Source of the DNA: Fimicolochytrium jonesii
Lineage: Eukaryota
Assembly (NCBI RefSeq): GCF_025526975.1
Contig: NW_026515680.1
Coordinates: forward strand, 496,001-560,000
Direction of reading: 5' to 3'
Length of the DNA: 64,000 nt
Shown here: positions 44,184 through 64,000 of the stretch, in pieces
How the letters are laid out: each line of letters starts with the position of its first letter
Position numbering within the stretch: the stretch's first letter is position 1
Position numbers and translations under genes: made by a program
The notes under the pieces: model-generated
The model's input: only the letters and a program-made list of their open reading frames with translations
Database searches by the model: none
Told to the model about the DNA's origin: nothing

Positions 44184-44232
44184 TGGATCAGTGCATAGCA
44201 TAAACCAATGGTTTATGCTATGCACTGATCCA
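44184..44232. repeat. 49-bp palindrome (24-bp perfect arms, 1-nt centre)
   Basis: TGGATCAGTGCATAGCATAAACCA-A-TGGTTTATGCTATGCACTGATCCA. Confidence 0.97.
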
Positions 44233-44246
44233 CTATACAATTGCAC

Positions 44247-44416
44247 TGTGCATTAACCGTACTGACTCCACTCAACACTGTGCATTAACCGTAACGGCTG
44301 CTGAAAGTGTAATGCATTAACCGTACTGGCGGGTGTATGGTGTAATGTATTAACAATGTACCCTACACCTTCGGTGTTATGCATTAACCGCACAAGCCTT
44401 TCAGCCATTAACCATC
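44247..44416. repeat. Spaced direct repeats (TGCATTAACCGTA-like), about 6 copies, ~32-34-bp period
   Basis: Conserved core with different spacers, directly after the palindrome. Confidence 0.85.
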
Positions 44417-44426
44417 CTTCCGCAAT

Positions 44427-44990
44427 TTGGGAAAGGGGGCAAAGTCAAAATTCCCCCCTACATGCGTCGAGTCCAACCAACCTTTCTATACTTCCCCATT
44501 CCGTGTTCCATGTAGGGGGGCAAAAAGGCAATTTTCGAACCAACTCTCACCACCAAAAAGAGACATCCTTTTCTCATTCTTCTTTTCAAAACTTTTCATA
44601 TATCCTCTCATAGGTTTAGAAACTGCCAAAATGCCCCCCCTGTATCTTTTTCCCGTCTGCGGGGGCATTTTTGAAAAAGGGGGGCAAAACAAAATGCCCC
44701 CCTACATGCGTCTAGCCAAACCACCCTTCCTATCTATTCGCCCATACCATATTTCATGTAGGGGGGCAAAAAGGCAATTTTCAAACCCACCCTCTCCCAC
44801 ACAAATCACACTTCTTTTCTCATTATTGCTTCTCAAATACTTTTAATATATTCTCTCATAGGTTTTGAAACTGCCAAAATGCCCCCCTACATCTATTATC
44901 CCGTCCTCACTCTCTCTTTTCTTTCCACTTCTCTACATTCCTCTAGGGGGGCATTTTCACTTTGCCCCACTTCTCAAAATGCCCCCCGCT
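44427..44990. repeat. Composite direct/inverted repeat block (TIR- or MITE-like)
   Basis: A ~243-bp unit is duplicated (44427 onward and ~44670 onward); 44427-44460 recurs inverted at ~44943-44978 and partly at ~45748-45790. Confidence 0.75.
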
Positions 44991-45144
44991 TATTCTGAGA
45001 AAATAGATTTCCCTACTTTATTAGTCGACCCCGTTACAGTAAATGACAAACTCATACTCTACTGTGACATCCACCAATACGAACATTCTTTCATTTTTCA
45101 AAATTACATTACATTGAAACCTATCATTACTTTCCCTCAGAACT

Positions 45145-45531
45145 CTAGTCTGCATTATCACGCACGGCATCGGTAGTGGTTTCTGAACTATTTTCTTCAA
45201 CTTTGCCAGTGCCAAAGGCCCACTCGTTGGGCATGGAGATACTCTCTGTGACAGCGTTATTCTTGACAAACTCTAATTTTCCCGGCTTGTCAAAGCAAGC
45301 CCATTCCTTCTTCTCGTTTTCAATCCAACGGTCGTATAGTTTTCGCCAGACAGGTTTCATGATGGAATTGAATCTGCAAAAGTCCCGTTCGTATTCTTTG
45401 CATTCCCAACCTGAACCCATTATCGTACCAGTGATGAATCGGCAGCGAGTTATGAAGTCCTCGTCGGAGATCTTTTCGCGGTGCGAAACTGCCATTAACC
45501 TTTTGACAAGCGGTTTACTTAAAAAAGACAT
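45145..45531 (-). CDS. Hypothetical protein, 128 aa
   Basis: ATG-initiated intronless ORF with globular composition, in the virus-like block. Confidence 0.55.
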   Translation of the reverse strand: MSFLSKPLVKRLMAVSHREKISDEDFITRCRFITGTIMGSGWECKEYERDFCRFNSIMKPVWRKLYDRWIENEKKEWACFDKPGKLEFVKNNAVTESISMPNEWAFGTGKVEENSSETTTDAVRDNAD

Positions 45532-46051
45532 GTTTAATGCTCACGTCTCCAATCTGCACCTTGTCGCTTCTATATAAACCTTGGTGTGGGACCGAAACCA
45601 AATCCGATAACAACTTACATTCGATATCAACTGTCAAGAAATGAGGTTATATGACATGATCAGCGGTCATTGAACTCGAAACAAATCTATAAACGGTCAA
45701 GTAGGTATCTGAATACTATTCATTCTCCGAATTCTCTACGTTCCTCTAAGGGGCATTTCCCTTTGCCCCACTTCTCAAAATGCCCCCGCCGTTCGTGTGA
45801 TGGGCTTTGTAAAATCGCCCACCCCCAACGTAAAGAGGTTCGTAAAAATCGCCCCCACTGGGGGTGTTTTGTTCCGGACGCCTTGCATAATTTTGGAGTG
45901 GGCGATTTCGAGACGTAGTTCAAATTTGTGGGGGTGATTTTGTTGAGACAGGTTCAACAGTGGTGGGGACGATTTTGTTGCTTCATCCCGAAATACTGTG
46001 GACGCATTTTCTCCAACAGCCAAAGTCAATTTCTTGAGTAAATTCAAACCA

Positions 46052-46384
46052 ATGCCAAACGTTTTTGAAATCAGTTCGGATATCAAGTGTATAGAGGGAG
46101 TTGTTGTTATTCGTTTTTTCGTAGCAGACCTCGATAGTCTGGAACGAATATGTCGGTCTATGTTAAACAAACCCGGTTACATGGCATACATCAAAGTAAA
46201 TGACGAGAATTGGGAGATTTTTAAACAGATCTACAACATTTTTACAAAGAAAAATAATCGTCTCCGTAAAGATTTCATTTTTCAAAGCGGGTATTTAGGT
46301 ATCACAGATGATAAGGGACAACTGAGAATGCTATGTGGAACAGACAAAGACCATCGAGCGTGTGTTCTTGATATTGATACTTAG
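46052..46384 (+). CDS. Hypothetical protein, 110 aa (paralogue of 56117-56449)
   Basis: Near-identical duplicate with synonymous changes; its stop overlaps the fibre stop by 4 nt. Confidence 0.75.
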   Translation: MPNVFEISSDIKCIEGVVVIRFFVADLDSLERICRSMLNKPGYMAYIKVNDENWEIFKQIYNIFTKKNNRLRKDFIFQSGYLGITDDKGQLRMLCGTDKDHRACVLDIDT

Positions 46385-49300
46385 TAGCATTGCGTCCAAA
46401 AGTTGAGGTAGGAATTAGACAACGTTATAGATGTTGGTATGACAATCCTTGCGCTTAATTGAGTATTTGTCGAAGAGAAGAGCAATGGAATTTGGAAACT
46501 GAACGGATACTTTGTGTTATACGTGTTGATATCGCAATAATACGATACCCCTCTCGCGGCGATAACAGTAGAAGATTGGTCTAATATTTGAACAGTTATT
46601 GTTACCCGTGAGTTCATAGCGTTCATGGCCCCAACAAACGAAACATGCGCAACAACTCCGGACATCCCGACTTTCCAATTTATGGGACCAAAGCCTCCCG
46701 TATAGCCGTTACCATTCGTCAACAACGTATCAACCACACCGTCTTTGATACAAACAGCAGATTGAATGATTTGTGAAGCATAGATGTTTGTAGAACAGGT
46801 CAAATCATTCTTGACCAAGGCTGTTGAATTACATGTAAGAGTGTTTGTGGTTGTGGCAAGAGAAACATCCAGAGTATTTGCAGAAGCGCTAACAAGGGTC
46901 GCTTTGGGAACAGCCTGATTATATTGAATATTTCGGATAGCGACCCCTCCGGTTGTGGTTTGATTTGCGTATGCCCATGCGATACCCCATACTACATAAG
47001 GCGTGGTATTTGCAAAAATAAATGAATTCCCATCTGTGGTCCAAGTCGAACCAGATATATTCGAAAACGTTGCGATTGTTACCATAGCCGACTCGGTTGT
47101 TCCGGCAATCACGGAGAAAGTAGTAGGCATCGCCACGGCGTCCATCAGGTAGGCGGTGAGTTTGATTGAACTCATAGCAATGGCCGACGGGAGTCTCAAT
47201 AACGAGTAATGAACAGACTGTGTTGTTCCATCTAAGCCTAAATTGGCTGTTGAAGTGCTTGCAGTTGCCCACCGCAGTCTGGAAGCGATTGTTGCGTTTG
47301 AGTAAGCGTCCCACGGGTGCCCTGTGTAACCATCACTTCCATTTCCATTTGCATACGTGTATTCGCTGGAGGCTGTAACTGTATAACCGTTCCAAGATGA
47401 AGAACCTGTTGCTGGCGTCTGTGGATATGGAATGAAAGTGGTTTTCGATGTTAAGGCAGGACTGTTCAAATCACCGGTCACATTGAGATTTGACCCGACA
47501 TATAAAGATTTCGCTACAGATGCGCCTCCACTCACCTGAAGAGCGCCTGATGCGTTAGAAGTGGCATCAGTAGTGGTCAAGATCGATACAGTACCACTGT
47601 TGTTCAGATTTCCCCCAACATATAAAGATTTCGCTACAGAAATCCCTCCAGAAACTTGGAAAGAACCGGTTCCTACTCCTGTAGAATCCGTTGTGGTAAA
47701 GACCGCGACGTTACCACTGCTGGTGTAGACTTTAAACCAAGTGGTATTTTCGGCCGAATTCCACACGGAAAAATCTCCTACAGTTCTCAAGTCGTCCCAT
47801 ACTCTGACATAAGGATTGGAAGACTGATTTGGGTCTATGGAGAGAGGACCTTGTGAACCTGTAGCAGAAATTGTTGCTAAACTCCCGGTGAAAGTCATGT
47901 TTCCTGTAACTGTCAAACTGCCGATAGAACCATTAGGAATAATAACCTTTCCCGTACCATCAATTGTAAGACCTTGTGGTGCATTCCATAATCCCAAACC
48001 CAACGTGTTTGTCGCAAGACCTGCTCCAGCATAATTGAAGTACAATCTGGCCATATTATTAGTTACTGCTCCTACTCCAATTTGAAGTGTTGAGAAACTC
48101 CCCGCTGCCAAGTTCGGTGTCCCAAGATGGCTGCTAACAATAGGTCCGGTGGAGGAGATATTGGAGTAGATTGTGCCGTTAACAGTCAAGTCTTTACCAA
48201 AATTGACATTCCCTGCAATACCCGCTCCACCTCTCACCTGAAGGGAACCTGATGTTGTCGTAGTAGAATCTATAGTGGAAAGAATCTGTACAGATGGCAG
48301 ATTAGAGTTGATTATGAAATTGGCATTCGAACCGGAATAGAGAAAAAAGTTCCCAGCATTTGGAGCGGTCGTATTGACTCCTGCGTAACCAAAAGCCCCC
48401 ACCACCGTTCCTGTGTTGTTAAGGAAACCGATAGTAGAAAATCCAGATGCCGAAAGACTCTGAAGTTTCAAAATATCAACGGAAGTTGAGTTTACTTGCA
48501 GTGTATGACTTCCCGTGGCGGCTGAACCAGCAAATAGAGATTTTCCCACACCTAGACCTCCAGCAACTGTTAGAGCGCCAGTTGTTGTAGAAGAGGAGTC
48601 GGTTGTTGTATTGATTAGAACATTTCCATTTGTCAATATATCAAGGTTTGATACGCCGGGTCCGTTAGCGAATCGTAAGTTTGTCGGTGAATTATTGTAC
48701 TGAGCCCGAATTACCATATCGCCAATAGCCGAATTTGAGGAAAAATACCCTGCTGCTGAAACGTTGCCCGTTATGCTGCTTCCAAATGTGGGTGTTGATA
48801 CCGAACCGTTGTACCAAAAGATACTTTGATTTGACCCGACAAAACTCGCATCACTTCCTACCGTCAATTTCTTGGCGATACCAACACCTCCGGCGACCTG
48901 TAAAGCGCCAGCATTTGTAGCGTTGGAGTCGGATACCGAATTGATAGTTAGTGCATTCGTTGTCACATTCACCGATAACGCAAGATTTGCGGCAGTATTG
49001 TTGTATAAGCCGAAATTATTAGTTCCAAGGCCACTAGTTTGACCTATATGCCACAAAGTCCAACCTCCACCGTTTGAGTTTATAAGACCTACAGAAGGTC
49101 CATTTCCGGCTGTAGATTCTTTTATGATTCCATATCCACCGACGTATAATGATTTAGCAATTCCAACGCCGCCTGCAACTTGGAGAGAACCAGCATTTAT
49201 AGCGTTGGAGTCAAGAGTAGAGGTAACTACAGTCGATGCAGCGTTATTTATATTCAAAGTCTGTCCTGTTGTGGTATTCAGGTTCGCTGTTGTTCCTCCT

Positions 49301-52300
49301 AGGAATACGGTGCCGCCAACCACCACACTTTTCCCCACACCAACTCCTCCAACAACTTGGAGCGCACCTGATGTGGTCGAGGTAGAATCAGTCGTTCCGG
49401 CAATTTGAACATTGGATAAGTTCGCATTTCCACCAACATTCAAAGATGATAGAGTTCCAACGCTTGTAATTTGAGGCTGAGCAGGATTTACGCTGAACGC
49501 ATTTCCACTACGTGTCAATCCTGTTCCAGCACTAAGAAGCGTATCAACATATGTCTTGTTTGTAAGATGAGTTGCTAAGGTCGGTGCTGTTGAGACGACA
49601 GCGTTTCCTGACACCGTGACATCTCCAGCAAAGTTCGCATTTCCATTAACGTTCAATGATGATAAAGTTCCAACCGATGTTATCTGAGGTTGAGCCACAT
49701 TGACAGAGAAATTGTTTCCTGTACGTGTTAAACCGGTTCCTGCACTTAGAAGCGTATCAACATAAGTCTTATTTGTGAGATGTGTATCTGCTGTTGGGGC
49801 TGTCGAGATGATGGCATTCCCTGATATGGTCACGTCGCCTGTAACACTCAACCCCTGCAGAGTTCCAACTTTGGTGATAACAGCCGACTGGTCCGTGTTG
49901 ACTGAAATGGCCGTGCCTGACTTTGACAATCCTGCGCCAACTGTTGTTGTCTGAGCGTCAACATATGCCTTGGTACTCACCTGCGCGTCAAGGTTCGCAA
50001 GAGGCAAGTTACCAGTCACATCTGTTGTAAGCGTGATGGTGTTCTTTAACGCCATTGACCCGAGCCCTAATGCCGTTCTAGATGCTGATGGAGTCGTTGA
50101 GATATAATTGGTTCCATCTCCTACAAGGAAATTATTGAGAGTTGGGGTAGATGCGGAAATAGCGGTCAATTTGGGATTAAGAGGTTGAGCATTTCCGGAT
50201 GTTGTAGAAATCAATCCATCCACATATGATTTTGTTGCTGGGTTTGATGCGACGGTGGGAGCAGGAATCGTTACCGCTCCAGTAAATGTAGATGCACCAC
50301 TAACTGAGAGGGAAGTAAGGGTTCCGACCGATGTGATTTGTGTCTGTACAGAATTGACACTTAAAGTTTGAGAATTTTTAGTCAAACCGGTTCCAGCAAG
50401 CACAATGTTAGGATCAATACTGGAAGCGGGAAGGACCCCACTTACATCACTTGCAAGATTGATAACGGATTTAGCCGCCAAACTGCCAAGAGTAGGCTTG
50501 TTTGTAAGTGAAGCCGAAGTGTAATCGAGGACATTAAGTGCTGCAAGAGAACCAAGCGTAGGTTTTCCTGTTATGTATGTACTTGTATAATCGATGCTAT
50601 TTAGCGCGGCGAGACTGCCCAGAATCGGTTTGTTTGTTAGGGCGGTACTTGTGTAGTCTAACGTATCGAGCAAACTCAGATTCTTCAAAGATAGATTCGC
50701 TCGAACGTCTGCAGGGGAATACTGAATGAAGTTACCGCCAGATGCGATAAGCATGTAGGTATTTGTAGGGGCGATGTTTCCAAAGTTTGTGAGTCGAGCG
50801 TTAAGCGGTTGCAATGTTGCTACAAGGTTATCTACATATCCTTTGTTTGCGGCGTTTCCCGCTGCTATCGGGGTAGGACAGAGTAGAACAGATGAAACGG
50901 TGACGCTTGTAAAAGTTTGACCGGAATTCAAAGAGATGACATTTGTAGCAGGGTTACGAACTAGACCTGTTGTAAAAGTAGGGGTTCCGCTTATTTGGGA
51001 ATAAGGCAGAGTGCCAGTTTTATCAAACTTGGTGTCGATGCTACTTTGGAGCAATGATGTGTTCTGGGCGATAACATTCATGTATGCCGGTTGCACAACT
51101 TCCTGGTCGTATTGTCTCAAAAGCGACAGAGATATCGCAGTTTGGGGAACCTCGTTTTTGATTCCTTTGAAGGCACAAGGCGGAATGTCATCAAGCAGCA
51201 AACGGGTCACATCACACGATGTATCATCCGTCTTGGGGAATGTCGCGATAATCACTTGACTTCCATTCGGGTCTGGGACCGGATTTCCGTTCGAGTCAAC
51301 CACATTATTACCATTCGCATCCTTCTGATTCTTCCTTTCCCTCCCACTTGCTGCGATAAAACCACCTAACAAGCCGCCGATGGCTGCAGGCCCACCCAAT
51401 AACGAGCCCAACCCCCCTACCGCACTAGTAGCAAATGGAGCGCCAGCCACAGGACCAACGAGTCCAATCGCACCGCCTAATATTGTAGATAGCGGACCAG
51501 TAACTGAAACCACTGGATTAGATCCAGATGCTGTTAAAGGATCAGATTCGCCACTGGGCTCCGAATCCTCATTTTTCTCTTCTGGATCATCATCTTCTTT
51601 CCGGTTTTTGTAGGGCTGAATCGAAGAGATATTGAAACCGGTTTCCTCGGAGCCAACAACGAGGATTCCAGAGCCCCCTGTTATAACCAAAGGCTGCTTA
51701 GACACGTTGAATTCCTTATCCGCTCCAGTAACAATGATAGGTAAAGCGCCGGTAATTACCGTTGGCGTTTCTGGTTCTGGTTGGTATGTACATGATATTG
51801 TCGATCCACTTATACTGATATTGTTTCCAACCGTATAGGCGCCGGAAATATTATTCCCTGTAACGGTTACTCCATTTGATCCAGTATAGGCACCTTTTAT
51901 TGAATTGCCTGCTACCGTAACAGTCGAATAACCAGCCTGTAAATCCAACTGCAAATCATTTTCTATGCGTTTGACTCCATTACTTGCTGTGATTTTCTCA
52001 CCGAATGTATTGTTACCATCGAATGTGATAGCACCGCTAACAGATGGAGCGAGTTTGACTTGGTTCGAATTCTCTAATTTCATTCCGCCATTTCCAGGTT
52101 GAAAAGTTAATCCTATCGCAATTTTATCATTGACGATGCGAACACCTTTATTGTCGACGATAGCCGACGGATTTACTGAAAGATTTTGTGAAGAGTCAAT
52201 TGCTAAAGTTGCATCTGTTCTAACATCGATAGTACGCCGACCATTGGACACTCCGGATATGTCTATACCTGACCCTGCTTGGTACAATTGCTCTACGTAC

Positions 52301-53397
52301 CCGGATGTCACCACTTCATTATTCGAAGGGTTGAAGTTGCTGTTAACGTATATATGCGGAACGTGTAATTCGTTCAACGTTTCATTATACGTAAAACTAC
52401 TGTCTCCATTGAATCCGCTTAAAGCAGAGTAGAATGGAACCTGTCCCATGCCTTTCGAGCGGATAGCCAATTTGTTCCCAGTCTGTTGAAAATCATCAGA
52501 TGTCTTTAAACGCACAACAGTTGTATCAACATCAGTTTCTGATCCCAAAAAGTCCGCTAGAGAATCGAAACCGGTCTCTAGAAGGTCATCGAGTGCAAGA
52601 CTTCCTGCTTTATCATTCGAAATAGCCCCTCGTCCAACAATCACTGTATCAACGTCAGTTTCCAAGTTCCCTTCATCATTTACTTTCAAACCCTTTCCAT
52701 AATCAAGATGAATTACCTTGTCTGCATCTTTCGAAAGCGGTTCTGCTACCTTCACTACTTCGTCAACAGTCGCTTCGATGTTCTCCTTAACGACCGAAAG
52801 TTGCCCGTTTTCAACTGTCAATGTGGAGTCAATATCCAGAGAGATTCCTTGTACGTCACGCGTCAAAGGACTGATCAAAGATTCTTTCACAACTGCTAAC
52901 TTACCATTATTCGCCTCCAATGAATTCTCATCAAAGTCCAACTTTATTCCTTTATCGTCTCTTGACAAGGGCTCTTGAAGATTTTCAACAACCGTTTCCG
53001 GAAAATTAACAGTCAAACCTTCATCACTTACTGAAAGCGATTTGTTGTGGAACAATGTCAGACCGTTTTCGTTGACTCCGAGAGGCAAGTTTGTCAAAAG
53101 GGAGACAGTTCTGCTTTCATCGTTCCTTTCGAGTGGAAATTCCATAATGTCAGGGATTACTTCAATAGATGCAATTCCGTTGGTTTTGTGAATAATCGCG
53201 TCTTCGCTATCGACAAGGTCGTTCAACAAAATTGGTCCGTTTTCATTAGATATCTTTTGAAAGCCTGCTGAATGAAAATTATCAATTGATACGTTCTCTC
53301 CATTAGCACGAAGACTATTGGTCACTAAAGGAGAAACGAGATTGGTTCGTTCAAGCACTCTGATTCCGCTTGATGTTCGGGAATTTAGACCGCTCAT
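46381..53397 (-). CDS. Giant fibre/adhesin-like virion protein, copy 1 (2338 aa)
   Basis: Uninterrupted 7-kb ORF; adenovirus-shaft-like repeats (PLSRDDKGIKLDF, GLKVNDEGNL); NKxYVD/TKxYVD motifs; ITSVGTLSSL repeats; DSxxxxxGALQVxGGxGIxKS repeats; discoidin-like NGYTVTASSEY domain. Confidence 0.85.
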   Translation of the reverse strand: MSGLNSRTSSGIRVLERTNLVSPLVTNSLRANGENVSIDNFHSAGFQKISNENGPILLNDLVDSEDAIIHKTNGIASIEVIPDIMEFPLERNDESRTVSLLTNLPLGVNENGLTLFHNKSLSVSDEGLTVNFPETVVENLQEPLSRDDKGIKLDFDENSLEANNGKLAVVKESLISPLTRDVQGISLDIDSTLTVENGQLSVVKENIEATVDEVVKVAEPLSKDADKVIHLDYGKGLKVNDEGNLETDVDTVIVGRGAISNDKAGSLALDDLLETGFDSLADFLGSETDVDTTVVRLKTSDDFQQTGNKLAIRSKGMGQVPFYSALSGFNGDSSFTYNETLNELHVPHIYVNSNFNPSNNEVVTSGYVEQLYQAGSGIDISGVSNGRRTIDVRTDATLAIDSSQNLSVNPSAIVDNKGVRIVNDKIAIGLTFQPGNGGMKLENSNQVKLAPSVSGAITFDGNNTFGEKITASNGVKRIENDLQLDLQAGYSTVTVAGNSIKGAYTGSNGVTVTGNNISGAYTVGNNISISGSTISCTYQPEPETPTVITGALPIIVTGADKEFNVSKQPLVITGGSGILVVGSEETGFNISSIQPYKNRKEDDDPEEKNEDSEPSGESDPLTASGSNPVVSVTGPLSTILGGAIGLVGPVAGAPFATSAVGGLGSLLGGPAAIGGLLGGFIAASGRERKNQKDANGNNVVDSNGNPVPDPNGSQVIIATFPKTDDTSCDVTRLLLDDIPPCAFKGIKNEVPQTAISLSLLRQYDQEVVQPAYMNVIAQNTSLLQSSIDTKFDKTGTLPYSQISGTPTFTTGLVRNPATNVISLNSGQTFTSVTVSSVLLCPTPIAAGNAANKGYVDNLVATLQPLNARLTNFGNIAPTNTYMLIASGGNFIQYSPADVRANLSLKNLSLLDTLDYTSTALTNKPILGSLAALNSIDYTSTYITGKPTLGSLAALNVLDYTSASLTNKPTLGSLAAKSVINLASDVSGVLPASSIDPNIVLAGTGLTKNSQTLSVNSVQTQITSVGTLTSLSVSGASTFTGAVTIPAPTVASNPATKSYVDGLISTTSGNAQPLNPKLTAISASTPTLNNFLVGDGTNYISTTPSASRTALGLGSMALKNTITLTTDVTGNLPLANLDAQVSTKAYVDAQTTTVGAGLSKSGTAISVNTDQSAVITKVGTLQGLSVTGDVTISGNAIISTAPTADTHLTNKTYVDTLLSAGTGLTRTGNNFSVNVAQPQITSVGTLSSLNVNGNANFAGDVTVSGNAVVSTAPTLATHLTNKTYVDTLLSAGTGLTRSGNAFSVNPAQPQITSVGTLSSLNVGGNANLSNVQIAGTTDSTSTTSGALQVVGGVGVGKSVVVGGTVFLGGTTANLNTTTGQTLNINNAASTVVTSTLDSNAINAGSLQVAGGVGIAKSLYVGGYGIIKESTAGNGPSVGLINSNGGGWTLWHIGQTSGLGTNNFGLYNNTAANLALSVNVTTNALTINSVSDSNATNAGALQVAGGVGIAKKLTVGSDASFVGSNQSIFWYNGSVSTPTFGSSITGNVSAAGYFSSNSAIGDMVIRAQYNNSPTNLRFANGPGVSNLDILTNGNVLINTTTDSSSTTTGALTVAGGLGVGKSLFAGSAATGSHTLQVNSTSVDILKLQSLSASGFSTIGFLNNTGTVVGAFGYAGVNTTAPNAGNFFLYSGSNANFIINSNLPSVQILSTIDSTTTTSGSLQVRGGAGIAGNVNFGKDLTVNGTIYSNISSTGPIVSSHLGTPNLAAGSFSTLQIGVGAVTNNMARLYFNYAGAGLATNTLGLGLWNAPQGLTIDGTGKVIIPNGSIGSLTVTGNMTFTGSLATISATGSQGPLSIDPNQSSNPYVRVWDDLRTVGDFSVWNSAENTTWFKVYTSSGNVAVFTTTDSTGVGTGSFQVSGGISVAKSLYVGGNLNNSGTVSILTTTDATSNASGALQVSGGASVAKSLYVGSNLNVTGDLNSPALTSKTTFIPYPQTPATGSSSWNGYTVTASSEYTYANGNGSDGYTGHPWDAYSNATIASRLRWATASTSTANLGLDGTTQSVHYSLLRLPSAIAMSSIKLTAYLMDAVAMPTTFSVIAGTTESAMVTIATFSNISGSTWTTDGNSFIFANTTPYVVWGIAWAYANQTTTGGVAIRNIQYNQAVPKATLVSASANTLDVSLATTTNTLTCNSTALVKNDLTCSTNIYASQIIQSAVCIKDGVVDTLLTNGNGYTGGFGPINWKVGMSGVVAHVSFVGAMNAMNSRVTITVQILDQSSTVIAARGVSYYCDINTYNTKYPFSFQIPLLFSSTNTQLSARIVIPTSITLSNSYLNFWTQCY

Positions 53398-53417
53398 TTA
53401 CTAATTGCTAAAGAAAA

Positions 53418-53714: not shown

Positions 53715-53762
53715 TGAATATTCTTTTTCTTAACATGTACTAAAGAATATATATTCCATTCT

Positions 53763-54557: not shown

Positions 54558-54571
54558 GGTGGACTGTGACA
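54526..54571. repeat. Perfect 46-bp palindrome followed by CCYATAGT repeats (to ~54655)
   Basis: TGTCACAGTCCACCCTATGGTAT|ATACCATAGGGTGGACTGTGACA. Confidence 0.97.
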
Positions 54572-54964
54572 GATCCTATAGTAAAAAAGAAGACTCCCAT
54601 AGTAGAGAATGGACTGACCCATAGTTCGAAACTGCTCTGCCGGATCCCATAGTAAAAGAATTGTCACATATCACCTTATTCAACATTTAAACATCTCCCT
54701 TCACGACATCGGATCACGTGACGGCACATGACTTCTCTCCATTCATTTCGAGTCACATTGCGTCATCTTCTGTCATTCCGCCGCTGTCCTGTCAACCGTC
54801 AATCCGTCACGCGTTCCCTCCATTCCGCTCATGACCGCCGCCATTCCTCTCAAACCTCTTTAACTTAACCTTCGCCTCCGTCCACAGCCGTAGACACTTT
54901 CTTCACATCGTCCCTCTACATCCACCTCTTCATTCACTTATTCGTTTTTGTTAACGTCAAATCT

Positions 54965-55305
54965 ACCTAGTTGTTCTCCGATTGGTGACAAAGTGAAATA
55001 AGTTATACGACTTTTACACGTTGTCACCTTTCGGAGAACAAGAATGCTTCTCACACGTTTCTCTCCGTTCCTCTTGGAAAAAAGAGGGAAAATAAATGAC
55101 GCCTCCCCACCCACCCCTCCATTCACTCTTTCGTTTCTGCTACAGTCACATTCTACCCAGTTGTTCTCCGCAAGGTGACAAAGTGAAATAAGTTATACGA
55201 CTTTTACACGTTGTCACCTTTCGGAGAACAACAATGCTCTCACACGTTTCTCTCCGTTCCTCTTGGAAAAAAAAGGGAAAATAAATGACGCCTCCCCACC
55301 CGCAC
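54965..55305. repeat. Two 190-bp-period direct repeats, each with a ~71-bp imperfect hairpin
   Basis: TTGTTCTCCG..GGTGACAA....TTGTCACC..CGGAGAACAA at 54971-55041 and 55161-55231. Confidence 0.92.
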
Positions 55306-55387
55306 CTTCATCAATCCAATGAAGACCATATCTTATTCACAACAATACAACATTATTTACAAGATTTTGCGCTGCGGTACAATGCAA

Positions 55388-55792
55388 TCATCGAAGTCCA
55401 ACGGGAATGCCCTTCCAGATTTTGTAAATTGTAGTTTCCTTTGGTGCCTTTTGCGTCCTAAATACCACATTCCCTTCTCTTCGCTTCAACCTGAATCTCT
55501 TCTTGCTCCTTGTGTCTCCCGGAACGTATTTTCCTACTCTATAATCGGTGGTTTTGAAATCCTCTGGCCTCGCCTTACTGGCATGAATCTCGCTAAACGT
55601 GCAAAACGTCTTGCCAATGGATTCGAGTTTGATGAATTCGTAACTACTGTAGAAGATATTGCCGATAATGCATCCTGGCATAATGACGTGAGTGCGAATC
55701 ACGTTATGAATCCATCGGCAACTAAGGTCAAGTTGTTTCTTATCGTCCAGCGAGAGGTATTTACACATCGCTAAGAACACTTCAATATCCAT
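55388..55792 (-). CDS. Small F-box-like protein
   Basis: N-terminal MDIEVFLAMCKYLSLDDKKQLDLSCRWIHNVI fits the F-box pattern, though it lacks the LP start. Confidence 0.6.
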   Translation of the reverse strand: MDIEVFLAMCKYLSLDDKKQLDLSCRWIHNVIRTHVIMPGCIIGNIFYSSYEFIKLESIGKTFCTFSEIHASKARPEDFKTTDYRVGKYVPGDTRSKKRFRLKRREGNVVFRTQKAPKETTIYKIWKGIPVGLR

Positions 55793-56116
55793 TGTGATAA
55801 TGGAGTTAACGTTCATGATTATCAAAGTGTTGTCCCGGTGGTTGAAAGTGCTGTCCTGGAAGACGGAAAGTCCTTTCCGAGAGGAAACAAAAATTCGATC
55901 CGTTTATACGATTTTGTCTTTTCCCGGAAGCAAAAGGGAATGCCCAGAAATTTGGTTCTTCTCGATAGAACATATGATCAGCGGTCATCCATCTCGAAAC
56001 AAATCTTGGTGCGGGACCAGAACCAAATCCGATAACATGAACAGCGGTCATCCATCTCGAAACAAATCCTTGAACGGTCAATTAAGTATTTGAATACTAT
56101 ACTCTAAACACTAGCC

Positions 56117-56449
56117 ATGCCAAACGTTTTTGAAATCAACTCGCATATCAAGTGTATCGAGGGAGTTGTTGTTATTCGTTTTTTCGTAGCAGACCTCGAT
56201 AGTCTGGAACGAATTTGTCGGTCTATGTTAAACAAACCCGGTTATATGGCATATATCAAATCAAACGATGAGAATCGGGAGATCTTTAAGCAGATTTATA
56301 CGATTTTTACAAAGAAGAATAATCGTCTCCGTAAAGATTTCATTTTTCGGAGCGGGTATCTAGGGATCACAGACGATAAGGGACAACTGAGAATGCTATG
56401 TGGAACAGACAAAGACCATCGAGCGTGCGTTCTTGATATTGATACTTAG
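56117..56449 (+). CDS. Hypothetical protein, 110 aa (paralogue of 46052-46384)
   Basis: Duplicate ORF with the same convergent overlap with the fibre gene. Confidence 0.75.
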   Translation: MPNVFEINSHIKCIEGVVVIRFFVADLDSLERICRSMLNKPGYMAYIKSNDENREIFKQIYTIFTKKNNRLRKDFIFRSGYLGITDDKGQLRMLCGTDKDHRACVLDIDT

Positions 56450-59400
56450 TAGCATTGCGTCCAAAAATTCAAGTAACTGTTCGAGAGGGTGATACTTGTC
56501 GGTATAATTATCCGAGCGGAAAGTTGCGTATTCGTCGAAGAAAAGAGCAACGGCACTTGAAAACTGAATGGGTAGCGAGTCTGATAATTGTTTATATCAC
56601 AGTAGTACGAGACTGCTCTAGAGGCGACTACGGTAGAGGATTGATCCAATATTTGAACAGTTATTGTTACCCGAGTGTGATTCGAATTCATATAGCCCAT
56701 AAAGGTACAATGCGCAACAACCGCGGACATACCAGGTTTCCATCCAATGGGTCCGAAGCCTCCCGTATAACCGTTACCATTCGTCAACAACGTATCAACC
56801 ACACCGTCTTTTATGCAAACTGCAGATTGAATGATTTGTGAAGCATAGATGTTCGTACTACAAGTCAAATCATTCTTTACCAAGGCTGTTGTATTGCATG
56901 TCAAGGAATTCACAGTTGCTGAACCACTTGATGAAACGGTTCCCGTAGTTATCGCACCCGAAACATCTATATTGTTTGCAGAAGCACTGACAAGGGTCGC
57001 TTTCGGAACAGCCTGATTGAACTGAATCTGGCGGATAGCGACCCCTCCTGTTGTTGTCTGATTCGCGTACTGCCATGCGAAACCCCATACTACATAAGGC
57101 GTGGTGTTTGCAAAACTAAACGTATTTCCATCAGTGGTCCAAGTAGAACCAGGTATATTCGAAAACGTTGCGATTGTTACCATAGCCGACTCGGTTGTTC
57201 CGGCAATCACGGAGAACGTAGTAGGCATCGCCACGGCGTCCATCAGGTAGGCGGTGAGTTTAAGAGAAGCCATAGCAATGGCCGACGGGAGTCTCAATAA
57301 CGACCAATGCAAACTCTGTGTTGTTGAATCGAGTCCTAGGTTTGCTGTTGAAGTGCTTGCAGTTGCCCACCGCAGTCTGGAAGCGATTGTTGCGTTTGAG
57401 TAAGCGTCCCAAGGGTGCCCTGTGTAACCATCACTTCCATTTCCATTTGCATACGTGTATTCGCTGGAGGCTGTAACTGTATAGCCGTTCCAAGATGAAG
57501 AACCTGTTGCTGGCGTTGTGGGATATGGAATTAGAGTCGTAACAGAATTTAATGCCGGACTTTTCAAATCACCGGTCACATTAAGATTTGACCCGACATA
57601 TAAAGATTTTGCTACAGATGCGCCTCCATTCACTTGAAGAGCGCCCGATGCGTTAGAAGTTGCATCAGAAGTGTTCAAGACCGATACATTACCTCCAACA
57701 TATACATTTTTCGCTACAGATGCGCCTCCAGACACTTGAAGAGCGCCTGATCCAACGCCTGTGGAATCGGTTGTGGTAAAGACAGATGCAACACCATTAT
57801 TTGTAAAGACTTTAAACCAAGTAGTGGTCTCGGCTGAATTCCACACGGAAAAATCTCCTACCACCCGTAAATCATCCCATACCCGTACATAAGGGTTGGA
57901 ACTTTGGTTCGGATCTATGGAGAGAGGACCTTGTGAACCAGATGCAGAAATTATTGCTTGATTTCCGGTGAAATTCATGTTTCCTGACACTGTTAAATTG
58001 CCAATAGAACCGGTAGAAATAACAACCTTTCCCGTACCATCAATCGTAAGCCCTTGAGGTGCATTCCATAATCCCAAACCCAACGTATTAGTTGCAAGAC
58101 CCGCTCCAGCATAGTTAAAGTACATTCTGGCCATGTTGTTTGTAGACGCTCCTACTCCAATTTGAAGTGTTGAGAAACTCCCCGCTGCCAAGTTCGGTGT
58201 CCCAAGATGGCTGCTAACAATAAGTCCGGTTGAGGCAATATTGGAGTAGATTGTGCCATTAACAGTCAAATCTTTACCAAGATTGACATTCCCTGCAATA
58301 CCCGCTCCACCTCTCACCTGAAGGGAACCTGATGTTGTCGTAGTAGAATCTATAGTGGAAAGAATCTGTACAGATGGCAGATTAGAGTTGATTATGAAAT
58401 TGGCATTGGAGCCGGAATAGAGAAAAAAGTTCCCAGCATTTGGAGCGCTTGTACCGGTTCCACCATACCCGAATGCCCCAACTATCGTTCCTGTGTTGTT
58501 AAGGAAACCGATAGTAGAAAACCCAGATGCCGAAAGACTCTGGATCTTGAGAACATCAGTTGTAGTGGAGTTTAGTTGCAGTGTATGACTTGCAGTGGCC
58601 GATGAACCAGCAAATAGAGATTTTGCAATTCCAACGCCACCCGACACTTGCAAAGCACCGGTTGTTGTGGAAGATGAATCTACTGGAGATTCGGCGATAA
58701 CTGCTCCATCCCCGCGTACACTCAAACCATATGATTGATTGGCTATCTGCAGTTTGATATAATTGTTTGCAGAGCCAGCACCTGTCAAGACGAAACTCAT
58801 CTGTCCACAGTTCATGAATGTGGTGCTCTGTCCAAGGCTTATCCAGTTGGAGAATCCAGCAGCCATATTGGGTAGAAGAAACGTGGCAGCGTTTGTATAG
58901 CCCGTACCCGCCATAGTTGAGGTGAGAACCCCCCCAATGGATACGCTTTTCCCTATACCAACTCCTCCGGCAACTTGGAATGCACCGGTTGTTATGGAAG
59001 TAGAATCCGTGGTGGTATTGACGATTACGCTCCCAGAGGCAAGAACATCTATAATGGAAATTCCCGGCGAATTCCCTATTCGCAAATTGGATGGTGCGTT
59101 GTTGTATACCGCTCGAATACACATATCTCCTATGGACGAATTACTTGAATAGTATCCGGCCGTACTTGAGTTTCCGCAGATAGTGCTTCCCGTATTACCA
59201 GTTGCATTGGATGTGTTGAACCATTGGATTGTTTGGTTAGTCCCAGTCATGTATAGGTTGGCACCTCCTACCGTCAGCGATTTTGAGATGCCAACTCCTC
59301 CAGCAACTTGGAAGGCACCGGCATTTGTGGCGTTAGAGTCAATAGTAGAAGTAACTACAGTCGATGCAGCGTTATTTATATTCAGAGTCTGCCCTGTTGT

Positions 59401-62400
59401 CGTATTCAGGTTCGCTGTTGTTCCTCCTAGGAATACGGTGCCGCCAACCACCACACTTTTCCCTATACCAACTCCGCCAACAACTTGGAGCGAACCTGAA
59501 TTTGTCGACGTAGAATCAGTCGTTCCGGCAATTTGAACATTGGATAAGTTTGCATTTCCACCAACATTCAGAGATGATAGAGTTCCAACGCTTGTAATTT
59601 GAGGCTGAGCGGGATTTACGCTGAACGAATTTCCACTACGTATCAAACCTGTTCCAGCACTAAGAAGCGTATCAACATAAGTCTTATTCGTAAGATGATT
59701 TGCTAAAGTCGGTGCTGTTGAGACGACAGCGTTTCCTGACACCGTTATATCTCCAGCAAAGTTCGCATTTCCACCGACGCTCAATGATGATAAAGTTCCA
59801 ACCGATGTTATCTGAGGTTGAGCCACATTGACAGAGAAATTGTTTCCTGTTCGTGTTAAGCCCGTTCCTGCACTTAGAAGCGTATCAACATAAGTCTTAT
59901 TTGTGAGATGTGTATCTGCTGTTGGGGCTGTCGAGATGATGGCGTTCCCTGATATGGTCACGTCGCCTGTAACACTCAAACCCTGCAGAGTTCCAACTTT
60001 GGTGATAACAGCCGACTGGTCCGTGTTGACTGAAATGGCCGTGCCTGACTTTGACAATCCTGCGCCAACTGTTGATGTCTGAGCATCGACGTAGGCTTTC
60101 GTGCTTACTTGGGCGTCTATATTGGCGAGAGGCAAGATACCTGTCACATCTGTTGTGAGCGTGATGGTGTTCTTTAACGCCACGGAACCGAGCCCTAGTG
60201 CTGTTCTAGATGCTGATGGAGTCGTTGAGACAAAATTACTTCCATCTCCTACGAGAAAATTATTAACAGTTGGGGTAGATGAGGAAATAACAGTTAATTT
60301 AGGATTAAGAGGTTGAGCATTTCCGGATGTTGTAGAAATCAATCCATCCACATATGATTTTGTTGCTGGGTTTGATGCGACGGTGGGAGCAGGAATCGTT
60401 ACCGCTCCAGAAAATGTAGATGCACCACTAACTGAGAGGGAAGTAAGGGTTCCGACCGATGTGATTTGACTTTGTGAAGGAAGAACTGCCAATGTGACCC
60501 CTGTCTTCGAAAGTCCTGTACCGGCGAGAACAGTTTGTGCATCAACATAACTTTTCAAAGCCACGCTCTGATCAATATTTGCATATGGAAGAATCCCCGT
60601 AACGTCAGTCGTTAGCGTAACTGCGTTTTTGCTCGATAATGACCCCAATGTGGGCAGTCCACTCAAATTCGAGTAAGCAACTGCATTCAAGAGGGCGACT
60701 GAGCCTAGTCCTAAAGCCACTCTAGCATTGGCTGGAGTGGTGCTGATAAAATTTGAATTATCGCCTACAAGGAAATTGTTGAGCGTGGGAGTAGATGCGG
60801 CAAGCGAACTTAATTTGGTGTTTAAAGGCTGATACGTTGTTGCAGCAGCACTCGATAAGAGGTAGTTATTCAGAGTGGGACTGCTAATACTTCCTGATGT
60901 CAAAGCGCCTGTGACATTGAGAGATGTGAGTGTTCCAAGACTCGTGATACTTCCCGTGTTAACAGAAACGGCATTAGATGTGTCCCTGGAAAGAATTGGT
61001 CCTGTAAATGTCAGTTTCTTCTCATAGATGCTGAGATCTGGAGTGCCCGTCAATCTCGTATATGAGATAGTATCTGTCTTTCCGACTTTGCTATCGATAG
61101 AGGATTGCAAGGATGTGGCCGTTTGTCCGATCAGACCTGTTGTAAACGGCTCGATCGTCGTCGCGTTGTATTCCTTGAGCATTTGAACGTTTATTGCCTG
61201 CTGTGGGACCTCTCCTGCAATACCCAGATACGAACATGGAGGTGGAGTGTCAAAAAGTAATCTCGTAACATCACAGGATGTATCATCCGTTTTAGGGAAA
61301 GTTGCGATGATAACTTGTGAGCCGTTTGGATCTGGAACCGGGTTTCCATTTGAATCCACTACATTGTTACCATTTGCGTCTTTCTGGTTCTTTCTCTCTC
61401 GACCGCTTGCAGCGATGAAACCACCAAGGATTCCTGCTGCTGCAGCAGGTCCTCCAAGAAGACCCCCGACGCTACCGATAGCAGATGTGGCAAATGGAGC
61501 GCCAGCCGCAGGGCCAATGAGACCAATTGCGCCTCCAAGTATTGTAGATAGCGGACCAGTGACTGAAATAATTTGATTCGTTCCACTGGCAGTTAACGGG
61601 TCGGATTCACCAGATGGTTCCGAATCCTCATTTTTCTCTTCCGGATCATCATCTTCTTTCCGGTTCTTGTAGGGCTGTATGGAAGAAATATTGAAGCCGG
61701 TTTCCTCTGAGCCAACTACCAAAATGCCACTTCCGCCCGTTATGACTAAAGGCTGTTTTGCGATGTTATACTCCTTATCCGCTCCAGTAACAATGATAGG
61801 TAAAGCGCCGGTAATTACCGTGGGTGTTTCCGGTTCTGGTTGGTATGTACATGATATTGTCGATCCACTTATACTGATATTGTTTCCAGCCGTGTAGGCG
61901 CCCGAAATATTATTCCCTGTAACGGTTACCCCATTAGATCCAGTGTAGGCACCTTTTATTGAATTGCCTGTCACCGTAACAGTCGAATCACCAGCCTGTA
62001 AATCCAACTGCAAATCATTTTCTATACGTTTAACTCCGTTACTTGCTGTGAGTTTCTCACCGAACGTGTTGTTACCATCGAATGTGATTGCACCTGAGAC
62101 AGATGGAGCGAGTTTGACTTGGTTCGAATTCTCTAATTTCATTCCGCCATTTCCAGGTTGAAAAGTTAGTCCTATCGCAATTTTATCATTTACGATGCGA
62201 ACACCTTTATTGTCAACGATAGCCGACGGATTTACTGAAAGATTTTGTGAAGAGTCAATTGCTAAACTTGCGTCCGTTCTCACGTCAACAATACGCCTTC
62301 CGTTACTCACGCCAGAAATGTCTATACCAGAACCCGCTTGATACAGTTGCTCTACGTACCCGGATGTCACTACTTCATCATTCGAAGGGTTGAAGTTGCT

Positions 62401-63453
62401 TGTAACGTATATATGGGGAACATGTAATTCATTGAGTGTTTCATTATACGTAAAACTACTGTCTCCATTGAATCCGCTTAAAGCAGAGTAGAATGGAACC
62501 TGTCCCATACCTTTCGAGCGGATAGCCAATTTTCCTCCTGTTTGTTGGAAATCATCAGATGTCTTCAAACGCACAACGGTTGTATCAACATCAGTTTCTG
62601 ATCCCAAAAAGTCCGCTAGAGAATCGAAACCGGTCTCTAGAAGGTCATCGAGTGCTAAAGATCCTGCCTTGTCGTTGCTAATCGCCCCCCGTCCAACTAT
62701 CACTGTATCAATATCCGTCTCAAGTTTGCTTTCATCGCTGAGTTTCAAACCTTTTCCATAATCAAGATGAATTACCTTGTCTGCATCTTTCGAAAGCGGT
62801 TCTGCTACCTTCACTATTTCGTCAACAGTCGCTTCGATGTTCTCCTTAACGACCGAAAGTTGCCCGTTCACAACTGTCAAGGTCGAATCAAAGTCCAAAG
62901 AGACTCCGCTGATGTCACGCGTCAACGGGGCTGTCAAAGGCTCTTTGACAACTGCCAACTTACCATTACTCACCTCCAATGAATCATCAAAATTCAATTT
63001 AAGCCCTTCATCGTCTCTTGACAAGGGTTCTTGAAGATCTTCTAGATCCGTTGGGGGAAAGTTAACAGTCAAACCTTCGTCGCTCACTGAAAGGGTCTGA
63101 TCGTGGAACAAATTGAGACCGTTTTCATTTACTCCAAGAGGCAGGTTTGTTACAAGGGAAACAGTTCTGCTTTCATCGTTCCTTTCGAGCGGAAATTCCA
63201 TGTTGTAAGGGATTACTTCAACAGATGCAATTCCGTTGGTCTTGTAAATAATAGCATCTTCGCTGTCAACAAGGTCGTTGATTTTTAATTCACCATTTTG
63301 GTTGTAGAGCGTCTTCACCTCGGCTGAATGAAATCCGGAGAGTTTTGTGTCTCCACTAAGGGCTTTCATATTTCCGGAAACATACGGGCTGTTCAACAGC
63401 GTATCGTTTAAATTTCGCAAACCGCTCGAATTTCTGCTGTTTAATCCAGACAT
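56446..63453 (-). CDS. Giant fibre/adhesin-like virion protein, copy 2 (2335 aa)
   Basis: Intact paralogue of 46381-53397 with the same repeat types and exchanged internal cassettes. Confidence 0.85.
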   Translation of the reverse strand: MSGLNSRNSSGLRNLNDTLLNSPYVSGNMKALSGDTKLSGFHSAEVKTLYNQNGELKINDLVDSEDAIIYKTNGIASVEVIPYNMEFPLERNDESRTVSLVTNLPLGVNENGLNLFHDQTLSVSDEGLTVNFPPTDLEDLQEPLSRDDEGLKLNFDDSLEVSNGKLAVVKEPLTAPLTRDISGVSLDFDSTLTVVNGQLSVVKENIEATVDEIVKVAEPLSKDADKVIHLDYGKGLKLSDESKLETDIDTVIVGRGAISNDKAGSLALDDLLETGFDSLADFLGSETDVDTTVVRLKTSDDFQQTGGKLAIRSKGMGQVPFYSALSGFNGDSSFTYNETLNELHVPHIYVTSNFNPSNDEVVTSGYVEQLYQAGSGIDISGVSNGRRIVDVRTDASLAIDSSQNLSVNPSAIVDNKGVRIVNDKIAIGLTFQPGNGGMKLENSNQVKLAPSVSGAITFDGNNTFGEKLTASNGVKRIENDLQLDLQAGDSTVTVTGNSIKGAYTGSNGVTVTGNNISGAYTAGNNISISGSTISCTYQPEPETPTVITGALPIIVTGADKEYNIAKQPLVITGGSGILVVGSEETGFNISSIQPYKNRKEDDDPEEKNEDSEPSGESDPLTASGTNQIISVTGPLSTILGGAIGLIGPAAGAPFATSAIGSVGGLLGGPAAAAGILGGFIAASGRERKNQKDANGNNVVDSNGNPVPDPNGSQVIIATFPKTDDTSCDVTRLLFDTPPPCSYLGIAGEVPQQAINVQMLKEYNATTIEPFTTGLIGQTATSLQSSIDSKVGKTDTISYTRLTGTPDLSIYEKKLTFTGPILSRDTSNAVSVNTGSITSLGTLTSLNVTGALTSGSISSPTLNNYLLSSAAATTYQPLNTKLSSLAASTPTLNNFLVGDNSNFISTTPANARVALGLGSVALLNAVAYSNLSGLPTLGSLSSKNAVTLTTDVTGILPYANIDQSVALKSYVDAQTVLAGTGLSKTGVTLAVLPSQSQITSVGTLTSLSVSGASTFSGAVTIPAPTVASNPATKSYVDGLISTTSGNAQPLNPKLTVISSSTPTVNNFLVGDGSNFVSTTPSASRTALGLGSVALKNTITLTTDVTGILPLANIDAQVSTKAYVDAQTSTVGAGLSKSGTAISVNTDQSAVITKVGTLQGLSVTGDVTISGNAIISTAPTADTHLTNKTYVDTLLSAGTGLTRTGNNFSVNVAQPQITSVGTLSSLSVGGNANFAGDITVSGNAVVSTAPTLANHLTNKTYVDTLLSAGTGLIRSGNSFSVNPAQPQITSVGTLSSLNVGGNANLSNVQIAGTTDSTSTNSGSLQVVGGVGIGKSVVVGGTVFLGGTTANLNTTTGQTLNINNAASTVVTSTIDSNATNAGAFQVAGGVGISKSLTVGGANLYMTGTNQTIQWFNTSNATGNTGSTICGNSSTAGYYSSNSSIGDMCIRAVYNNAPSNLRIGNSPGISIIDVLASGSVIVNTTTDSTSITTGAFQVAGGVGIGKSVSIGGVLTSTMAGTGYTNAATFLLPNMAAGFSNWISLGQSTTFMNCGQMSFVLTGAGSANNYIKLQIANQSYGLSVRGDGAVIAESPVDSSSTTTGALQVSGGVGIAKSLFAGSSATASHTLQLNSTTTDVLKIQSLSASGFSTIGFLNNTGTIVGAFGYGGTGTSAPNAGNFFLYSGSNANFIINSNLPSVQILSTIDSTTTTSGSLQVRGGAGIAGNVNLGKDLTVNGTIYSNIASTGLIVSSHLGTPNLAAGSFSTLQIGVGASTNNMARMYFNYAGAGLATNTLGLGLWNAPQGLTIDGTGKVVISTGSIGNLTVSGNMNFTGNQAIISASGSQGPLSIDPNQSSNPYVRVWDDLRVVGDFSVWNSAETTTWFKVFTNNGVASVFTTTDSTGVGSGALQVSGGASVAKNVYVGGNVSVLNTSDATSNASGALQVNGGASVAKSLYVGSNLNVTGDLKSPALNSVTTLIPYPTTPATGSSSWNGYTVTASSEYTYANGNGSDGYTGHPWDAYSNATIASRLRWATASTSTANLGLDSTTQSLHWSLLRLPSAIAMASLKLTAYLMDAVAMPTTFSVIAGTTESAMVTIATFSNIPGSTWTTDGNTFSFANTTPYVVWGFAWQYANQTTTGGVAIRQIQFNQAVPKATLVSASANNIDVSGAITTGTVSSSGSATVNSLTCNTTALVKNDLTCSTNIYASQIIQSAVCIKDGVVDTLLTNGNGYTGGFGPIGWKPGMSAVVAHCTFMGYMNSNHTRVTITVQILDQSSTVVASRAVSYYCDINNYQTRYPFSFQVPLLFSSTNTQLSARIIIPTSITLSNSYLNFWTQCY

Positions 63454-63498
63454 TCTGTTATATTCAATGCATTACAAAATAAGATGTTGAACATTATT

Positions 63499-63612
63499 GG
63501 AGGCGTCATTTATTTTTTCACTTTTTTTTCCAACCGAAAATTCGTGTTCTCCGCAAGGTGACAACATGTAAAAGTTGTATAACTAATTTCACTTTGTCAC
63601 CCGTCGGAGAAC
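63499..63612. repeat. Third, inverted copy of the hairpin repeat
   Basis: GAGGCGTCATTTATTTT plus GTTCTCCG..GGTGACAA..TTGTCACC..CGGAGAAC; reverse complement of the 55-kb units. Confidence 0.88.
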
Positions 63613-63649
63613 GACGAATGTTTTTTTAATTAAAGCATTATATAAGGAC

Positions 63650-64000
63650 TTAATCGCAATTCAAGATATCGAACTCTTCGAATGATAGCAACGCTTCTGC
63701 TATCTTACCAAGTAACAATCCATTTGTGTCCCATGTGTACCGTTTCTTATTCTTACGTTTCTCTTTCGTTTTAACAATAATTGGTGCACAAAAATAAGCA
63801 TTGATGATCTTTGCGTATAGGTCCATTCTGTACGTTTTCGGTCGGTGAAACATTTTAAAAGATCTTTGTATGTCTCCAAAAGGTGAGTTACAGACATGCT
63901 CTGGTCTGATTTCCCCTTCGATTGTTAGATTATTGTCCTTGTAAAACTTGTGGACTATTGGGGCGCATTTTATGTCGTGATACAGTTCTTGACCTCGTTC
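63650..64000 (-). CDS. C-terminal 116 aa of an ORF starting outside the window
   Basis: Frame is open from 64000 (ERGQELYHDIKC..) to the stop at 63650; function not recognisable. Confidence 0.6.
   Translation of the reverse strand, partial: ERGQELYHDIKCAPIVHKFYKDNNLTIEGEIRPEHVCNSPFGDIQRSFKMFHRPKTYRMDLYAKIINAYFCAPIIVKTKEKRKNKKRYTWDTNGLLLGKIAEALLSFEEFDILNCD

Follow-up and report, generated by a model that had tools for sequence, protein, structure and literature searches.

An integrated Polinton-like virus (PLV) with pPolB and a 154-bp terminal inverted repeat (TIR) is described in the chytrid Spizellomyces punctatus (PMC7805220, Bellas and Sommaruga 2021), and numerous chytrid genomes are reported to carry A32-like ATPases that fall among PLVs (bioRxiv 10.64898/2026.06.19.733378). 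In Halocafeteria seosinensis, endogenous virophages and one PLV subtype (subtype 4) display terminal palindromes, replicases other than pPolB, and nesting, and a hairpin-priming mechanism was proposed for them (bioRxiv 10.64898/2026.07.28.741278). Cryptophyte PLVs encode giant PF06536 fibres and, in 20 elements, a fusion of a primase with a superfamily 2 (SF2) helicase (PMC12220804). Chytrid PLVs, giant fibres, the primase-SF2 helicase, palindromic ends, and nesting are each already in print separately. A large survey of PLVs in protists excluded fungi (PMC10120064), and a 2026 survey states that no double-stranded DNA (dsDNA) virus of a fungus has been isolated and puts the share of fungal assemblies containing such regions at 0.89% (bioRxiv 10.1101/2025.04.19.649669). 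Here, we analyzed a window of 64,000 nucleotides (nt) from the soil chytrid Fimicolochytrium jonesii (NCBI RefSeq assembly GCF_025526975.1, contig NW_026515680.1, positions 496,001 to 560,000 of the forward strand); all positions below are those of this window. Its right-hand part, 44184-64000 (the island), probably consists of the left ends of two related, yet distinct endogenous PLVs of the chytrid, the second nested in the first. Feature coordinates are collected in Table 1.

The island differs in composition from the DNA to its left. Mean GC content is 0.520 over 1-44183 and 0.440 over 44184-64000. The best-fitting change point lies at ~43,900, with 44,000 and 44,500 only 3.9 and 6.2 log-likelihood units worse, so that the likelihood is flat up to ~44,500 and the step falls within a few hundred bases of 44184. 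Nine open reading frames (ORFs) cover 85% of the island. The two largest, the predicted fibre genes F1 and F2, have 68-168 stops in each of their other five frames and only the terminal stop in their own, and their third-position GC is 0.38-0.39 versus 0.60-0.66 in three host ORFs. A first-pass annotation of this DNA, made from the sequence alone, had described an abrupt change from intron-rich host DNA with decayed transposons to AT-richer, intronless DNA with two 7-kb ORFs free of internal stops. The compositional shift and the two uninterrupted ORFs are borne out, and the copia and Ty3 retrotransposon pieces to the left are broken into several ORFs. The claim about introns stands in part: host genes are indeed split over several ORFs, and it is from this splitting, not from mapped introns, that introns were judged.

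The junction at 44183/44184, as given by the assembly, might be a chimera in which a free virus or a contaminant was fused to fungal DNA. This is very improbable, as the join falls exactly on a palindrome and homologues in several genera lie on fungal contigs as long as 1.8 Mb. In addition, a scan of prokaryote genomes gave a single match of 44 residues and a phage collection none, on which grounds a prokaryotic origin was rejected.

Perfect palindromes with arms of at least 13 nt are found at only two places in the window, P1 and P2, whereas arms did not exceed 11 nt in any of 10 simulated 64-kb sequences. P1 coincides with the GC step and P2 lies inside ORF C. Both read TG...CA, which is a hint of an integrase of the retroviral type, the usual maker of such ends. 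When terminal repeats were sought, the left tips were present as palindromes, and the right ends of both elements lie beyond the window. The non-coding DNA behind P1 contains a 246-bp tandem repeat (44435-44905) preceded by four iterons of 10 nt each (44249-44380). A 7-mer occurs 11 times in 44184-46051, four times in the 44 kb of host DNA, and nowhere in the rest of the island. Behind P2, each 189-bp tandem repeat unit contains a 76-bp imperfect hairpin (54970-55045 and 55160-55235), and inverted copies of the hairpin (54970-55295 and 63499-63615) flank a block comprising ORF D, ORF B2, and F2. These inverted repeats could be origin boxes, a promoter/terminator, or the ends of a cassette. A 13-nt motif beside the 76-bp hairpin is confined to the three copies of the hairpin. 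The first six bases of P2 recur both in 54526-55387 (seven times) and in the third hairpin (twice), compared with eight occurrences in 44 kb of host DNA. The terminal regions of the two elements are alike only in the ~100 bases preceding ORF B. The Halocafeteria elements likewise combine ~50-nt terminal palindromes with non-pPolB replication genes, nesting, GC below that of the host, and gene sharing between co-residents, but their host is a stramenopile and their palindromes were seen inside TIRs beside target duplications, whereas here only left tips are visible (bioRxiv 10.64898/2026.07.28.741278).

Self-comparison of the two halves of the island revealed homology restricted to the 110-aa (amino acids) gene B and the fibre gene; the ends, A/D, s98/C, and E differ between the two units. 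A simple tandem duplication was rejected because the ends differ. A full HMMER search with ORF C returned 11 matches, of which 10 were retained, and all eight with a species assignment are chytrid proteins; the match that was dropped as spurious, P0028, is a bacterial pilin-type repeat protein. C tracks its homologues up to ~residue 253, then enters P2 and terminates inside it, whereas P0018, P0019, P0022, and P0027 extend beyond this break with at least 200 residues of common sequence. Because the break in C coincides with the palindrome, it is likely, as judged from these alignments, that element 2 was inserted in gene C of element 1. Element 1 is thus likely interrupted by element 2, and the window covers the left parts of both elements only. 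The region had been taken for one apparently intact island forming the structural arm of a single virus. It resolves instead into two units, the first apparently cut in gene C by the second, and there is no capsid, penton, or ATPase gene in the window.

F1 has an N-terminal beta-spiral-type shaft (residues ~88-245) that matches PF06536 above the Pfam cut-off (E 6.7e-11) and consists of short Pro/Gly-Leu-initiated repeats. Several longer repeat families follow in a long, repetitive, beta-rich stalk, before a discoidin/CBM32-like domain (~1983-2167) and a beta-sandwich at the very end. F2 gave no match in Pfam. A search with the fibre N terminus identified 17 homologues out of 7,983 candidates of 1,285-4,092 aa, all 12 with a species assignment belonging to Spizellomycetales (five in Fimicolochytrium, five in Gaertneriomyces, and one each in Powellomyces and Spizellomyces), which by itself makes a chytrid of this order the likely host. 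Their N termini are conserved and their distal domains variable; PF06536 was matched at E<=0.01 by 7 of the 17, five of them above cut-off, and F5/8 type C by eight. When a structural model of F1 residues 1-500 was compared by Foldseek, all five PDB matches at E<=0.001 were reovirus sigma1, and adenovirus fibres were 45 of the 50 matches listed in BFVD. The likeness to these two proteins lies in the N-terminal repeat shaft, a few hundred residues at the start of a protein of 2,338, and no adenovirus core genes were seen in the window. The repeat pattern and the monomer matches fit a trimer with a triple beta-spiral shaft, which the fibre may form. A nine-sequence fibre profile also weakly matched phage hyaluronidase (E 1e-4).

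At the other end of the protein, a model of the last 400 residues (predicted local distance difference test, pLDDT, 54) yielded discoidin/CBM32-like matches, one with Z 13.0 and a root-mean-square deviation (rmsd) of 3.0 over 141 residues, and a second with Z 12.2 and rmsd 2.5 over 128 residues. The structure matches listed for this part all concern this one domain; the final beta-sandwich was unmatched. Judging by its fold alone, the modeled domain may bind glycans. Cryptophyte PLVs similarly have very long modular PF06536 fibres with carbohydrate-binding domains, as well as the primase-SF2 fusion, but their fibres use laminin G and Peptidase_S74, whereas the distal domain here is discoidin/F5-8-like and Pfam found no S74 (PMC12220804). 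Scans of IMG/VR with the fibre, and of JGI metagenomes with the fibre alignment and with C, gave no match.

F1 and F2 have diverged under constraint. The ratio of nonsynonymous to synonymous substitution rates (dN/dS) is 0.05-0.39 in 15 of 16 windows along the gene, one being saturated, with dS ranging from 0.15 to 2.8; for B1 and B2 it is 0.09, with 17 of 25 differences at third positions. Low dN/dS reflects selection in the lineages and not present use of the F1 and F2 copies, so that the earlier suggestion that the virus is still selected does not follow from it. Compared in blocks of 120 residues, F1 shares 98-100% identity with its homologue P0016 over 1321-1800, where F1 and F2 share 47-96%, and 92% with P0017 at 841-960, where F1 and F2 share 32%. 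Because identity to different copies varies block by block, the fibre gene is a mosaic swapped among copies.

These genes could alternatively represent a domesticated family of host surface adhesins expanded by local tandem duplication, with no virus involved. Such a family would account for F1 and F2 blocks lying head to tail ~10 kb apart, for the homologues with a species assignment all being annotated as fungal genes, and for low dN/dS. We consider it highly improbable, given that homology between the units stops at B and the fibre, that the second unit disrupts a gene, and that a low GC content, the absence of introns, and a replicase of viral type are not host-like. Two endogenous PLVs remain our preferred explanation, and PF06536, the fold matches, the chytrid homologues, and the viral-type replicase support the original proposal that the giant fibre genes belong to a dsDNA virus endogenous to a chytrid.

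The replicase is represented in the window by ORF E, which is 99% identical to the final 116 aa of P0030 (991 aa). Four proteins with 98-99% identity make up the P0030 cluster; their contigs are 573,532, 786,645, 799,348, and 29,056 bases long, and identity at this level between copies points to recent spread. A relative in Thoreauomyces shares 52% identity. The helicase of P0030 matches PF02399 above cut-off, and a three-sequence profile matched structures of the herpes origin-binding protein (E 5e-13), whereas a single-sequence query gave no match. Its N terminus shows, by eye, three motifs that are putatively those of archaeo-eukaryotic primases. The SF2 helicase domain is common to herpesvirus UL9, plasmid CyRepA1, and the E protein, but in the latter it is fused to the primase-like N terminus. 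The two nearest Atlas clusters of P0030 are 94 and 100% viral, the commonest assignment being Preplasmiviricota.

Scans of IMG/VR with E, with P0030 alone, and with the P1 arm gave no match. A scan with P0030 alignments identified one free 16.4-kb contig, L001 (L001 and L002 are one contig), with a PLV-like layout. L001 encodes a full-length relative of P0030 (25% identity) and, beside it, a P-loop ATPase with a weak match to Pox_A32 (E 0.04). Two of its ORFs, at the places of penton and capsid genes, recur in 15 of 16 and 16 of 16 loci, respectively. The other 14 contigs of the L001 capsid-like family carry different long replication-type ORFs.

How far do these elements agree with PLVs as a class? 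Element 2 has a replication gene of the primase-helicase type, E, and the part of element 1 in the window shows none. In the assembly, the elements are integrated, and they are multicopy, gene-dense, and lower in GC than their host, and have a long modular fibre, which is common in PLVs but not defining. PLV membership is unproven because the defining capsid module lies outside the window. Neither the pPolB nor the RVE integrase of canonical Polintons/Mavericks is in the window, where element 2 has a primase-helicase; a pPolB may lie farther right. The S. punctatus PLV shares with these elements its small size, its endogenous state, its dsDNA nature, and the fungal order of its host, but has pPolB and its 154-bp TIR where element 2 has a primase-SF2 helicase and palindromic tips (PMC7805220).

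Several observations weigh against two endogenous PLVs. Genes for capsid, penton, packaging ATPase, protease, and integrase are absent from the window, past whose right edge both elements run, and none found elsewhere could be tied to these elements. The capsid and penton calls in L001 rest on gene order, with no match in Pfam, NCBIfam, or PDB, and the fibre, C, s98, and B are absent from all 16 IMG/VR loci gathered through L001. The primase label depends on motifs read by eye, no library having named a primase, and the helicase scored below cut-off against the cyanobacterial plasmid protein CyRepA1 (91.8 versus 200); some phage clusters also match the helicase, which is hence not exclusive to PLVs. 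P0032, identical to E over all 116 aa, lacks residues 1-123 and with them the first primase motif, while P0034 is gapped internally; either could be a broken copy or a poor gene model. For the shaft, the model is that of a monomer and has low confidence (pLDDT 46.6; predicted template modeling score, pTM, 0.17; TM-scores 0.08-0.15). Finally, four C homologues are just 240-296 aa long, so short forms or short models of this protein exist.

The lack of a capsid gene in 20 kb could also mean that these are capsid-less, hairpin-ended satellites or transposon-like derivatives, in which a primase-helicase and a fibre cassette depend on capsids from a helper virus. The inverted repeats that bracket D-B2-F2 like a movable cassette, and the presence of B and the fibre in two elements with differing ends, would be in keeping with this. 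It is nonetheless improbable, since both elements leave the window and the absence of a capsid gene is therefore uninformative, since a 7-kb fibre under purifying selection is most simply a virion part, and since s98 and C keep their order beside the fibre in another genome record.

Membership in another class of viruses, whether virophages, mriyavirus-like viruses, or giant viruses of the Mycodnaviridae type, has a similarly low probability in our estimation. Palindromic ends are reported mostly for virophages, with four virophage subtypes versus one PLV subtype in Halocafeteria (bioRxiv 10.64898/2026.07.28.741278), and origin-binding-type helicases are present in virophage clusters (PMC7805220 supplement). 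Giant-virus capsid genes lie on Spizellomycetales contigs, with capsid remnants in two of these genera, in a study whose text and part of whose supplement make no mention of the present elements (PMC13533422). Set against this are the two terminal structures, both complete and separated by 10 kb, and the many copies on separate contigs, which fit small elements; the Atlas neighbors, which are Preplasmiviricota rather than Nucleocytoviricota; and the placement of chytrid A32-like ATPases among PLVs (bioRxiv 10.64898/2026.06.19.733378). None of the core genes of Nucleocytoviricota was found in the 20-kb island. We retain PLVs as the probable class.

Table 1. Features of the island, in window coordinates
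Feature	Position	Strand	Description
P1	44184-44232	.	Perfect palindrome, 24-nt arms, 1-nt loop, TG...CA; z -10.8; putative left tip of element 1
Element 1 subterminal region	44233-45144	.	Non-coding; iterons, tandem repeat, G-run/C-run motifs in both orientations
ORF A	45145-45531	-	128 aa; strand tentative; no family
ORF B1	46052-46384	+	110 aa; convergent with fibre gene, overlaps fibre stop
Fibre F1	46381-53397	-	2338 aa; shaft, stalk, discoidin/CBM32-like domain, final beta-sandwich
ORF s98	53418-53714	-	98 aa; basic, Met-Gly start, amphipathic throughout; directly upstream of F1
ORF C	53763-54557	+	Chytrid-restricted family; runs into P2 and stops within palindrome
P2	54526-54571	.	Perfect palindrome, 23-nt arms, no loop, TG...CA; z -9.4; putative left tip of element 2
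Element 2 subterminal region	54572-55311	.	Short iterons, 189-bp tandem repeat
Antisense ORF, alternative to D	55319-55774	+	151 aa
ORF D	55388-55816	-	142 aa; F-box-like start by eye only
ORF B2	56117-56449	+	110 aa; second copy of B
Fibre F2	56446-63453	-	2335 aa; overall identity to F1 80%, varying from 32% to 97% between patches
Third copy of 76-bp hairpin and flank, inverted	63499-63615	-	From self-comparison
ORF E	63650-64000	-	Last 116 aa of 991-aa primase-like and SF2 helicase protein; leaves window

Among the small ORFs of the island, scans of Pfam and NCBIfam found no family for A, D, or the antisense ORF of D, and a PHROGs scan yielded only weak matches to families of unknown function; A and D show no likeness to each other. 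No homologue of B was found among proteins of 60-193 aa. The s98 protein has a hydrophobic moment of 0.35-0.55 and a net charge of +7, and shares 56% identity with an extension at the N terminus of P0003, a Fimicolochytrium gene model for the fibre, which thus joins an s98 homologue to the fibre. These sequence features make s98 a candidate small virion protein; that it lies inside the virion and acts on membranes is guesswork. The antisense of B is incorporated in another Fimicolochytrium fibre gene model, indicating the same arrangement at another locus. Moreover, the C homologue KAI8822074 directly precedes the consecutively numbered s98-fibre model KAI8822075, and the order C, small ORF, fibre is kept in Fimicolochytrium as far as these gene models tell.

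Left of the island, a Pfam scan found a family for 10 of 19 ORFs, and the host genes include Vps10, an EF-hand protein, Dus3, DEK-C, and RhoGAP. The copia pieces and a chromodomain Ty3 element, apparently nested, occupy 1-13660; a 336-bp direct repeat (6091-6426 and 12064-12399, 96% identity) likely represents the long terminal repeats of the Ty3 element. Two broken Fanzor/TnpB-like remnants, at 23056-24102 and ~40041-42050, both on the minus strand, were recognized by eye from RuvC-type motifs and Cys pairs. Neither has a Pfam match and only the second has a weak match to TnpB in NCBIfam (E 0.04); it also contains a 21-bp minisatellite of 17.7 copies (40966-41338). Immediately left of P1 (43990-44183) lies an (ACA)n-rich tract, and behind it an ATG with six further codons runs up to the palindrome. 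The start of a gene or of a transposon ORF may have been the landing site of element 1.

A possible life cycle can be outlined for such elements. A linear DNA with TG...CA ends would integrate, including into resident copies, presumably by means of a retroviral-type integrase. Once the element is excised, a hairpin formed by its palindromic tip might prime or resolve replication, and the primase-SF2 helicase might load on the iterons and 76-bp hairpins, by analogy with the proposal for the Halocafeteria elements. The 2.3-kaa (thousand amino acids) protein would form a trimeric fibre at the capsid vertex and attach to a host surface glycan via its discoidin-like domain, while recombination between co-resident copies would generate mosaic fibres. 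The DNA would be packaged in a capsid, and genes for capsid, ATPase, and integrase are predicted to the right of the window.

The first-pass annotation had called the virus possibly undescribed. This holds for the lineage, which we did not find in print (subscription journals, bioRxiv supplements, and part of the PMC13533422 supplement were outside the scope, so that it may be listed in tables), but not for chytrid PLVs as such, which have already been reported (PMC7805220; bioRxiv 10.64898/2026.06.19.733378). Each of the component parts has precedents in protist PLVs and virophages. We also envisage, as a possible but doubtful extension, a still-mobile, chytrid-confined lineage of small, hairpin-ended dsDNA viruses that replicate by means of a primase-UL9-like helicase acting on their own iterons, and in which a giant glycan-binding fibre is traded as a repeat-bracketed cassette between different viruses of one nucleus. 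If this were true, a cultured host would yield particles of a small fungal dsDNA virus, perhaps one parasitic on Mycodnaviridae. The dsDNA viruses of fungi are barely characterized, and the apparent recent spread of these elements means that a culturable chytrid could serve both for a particle search and for a test of hairpin priming, which is so far only a proposal.

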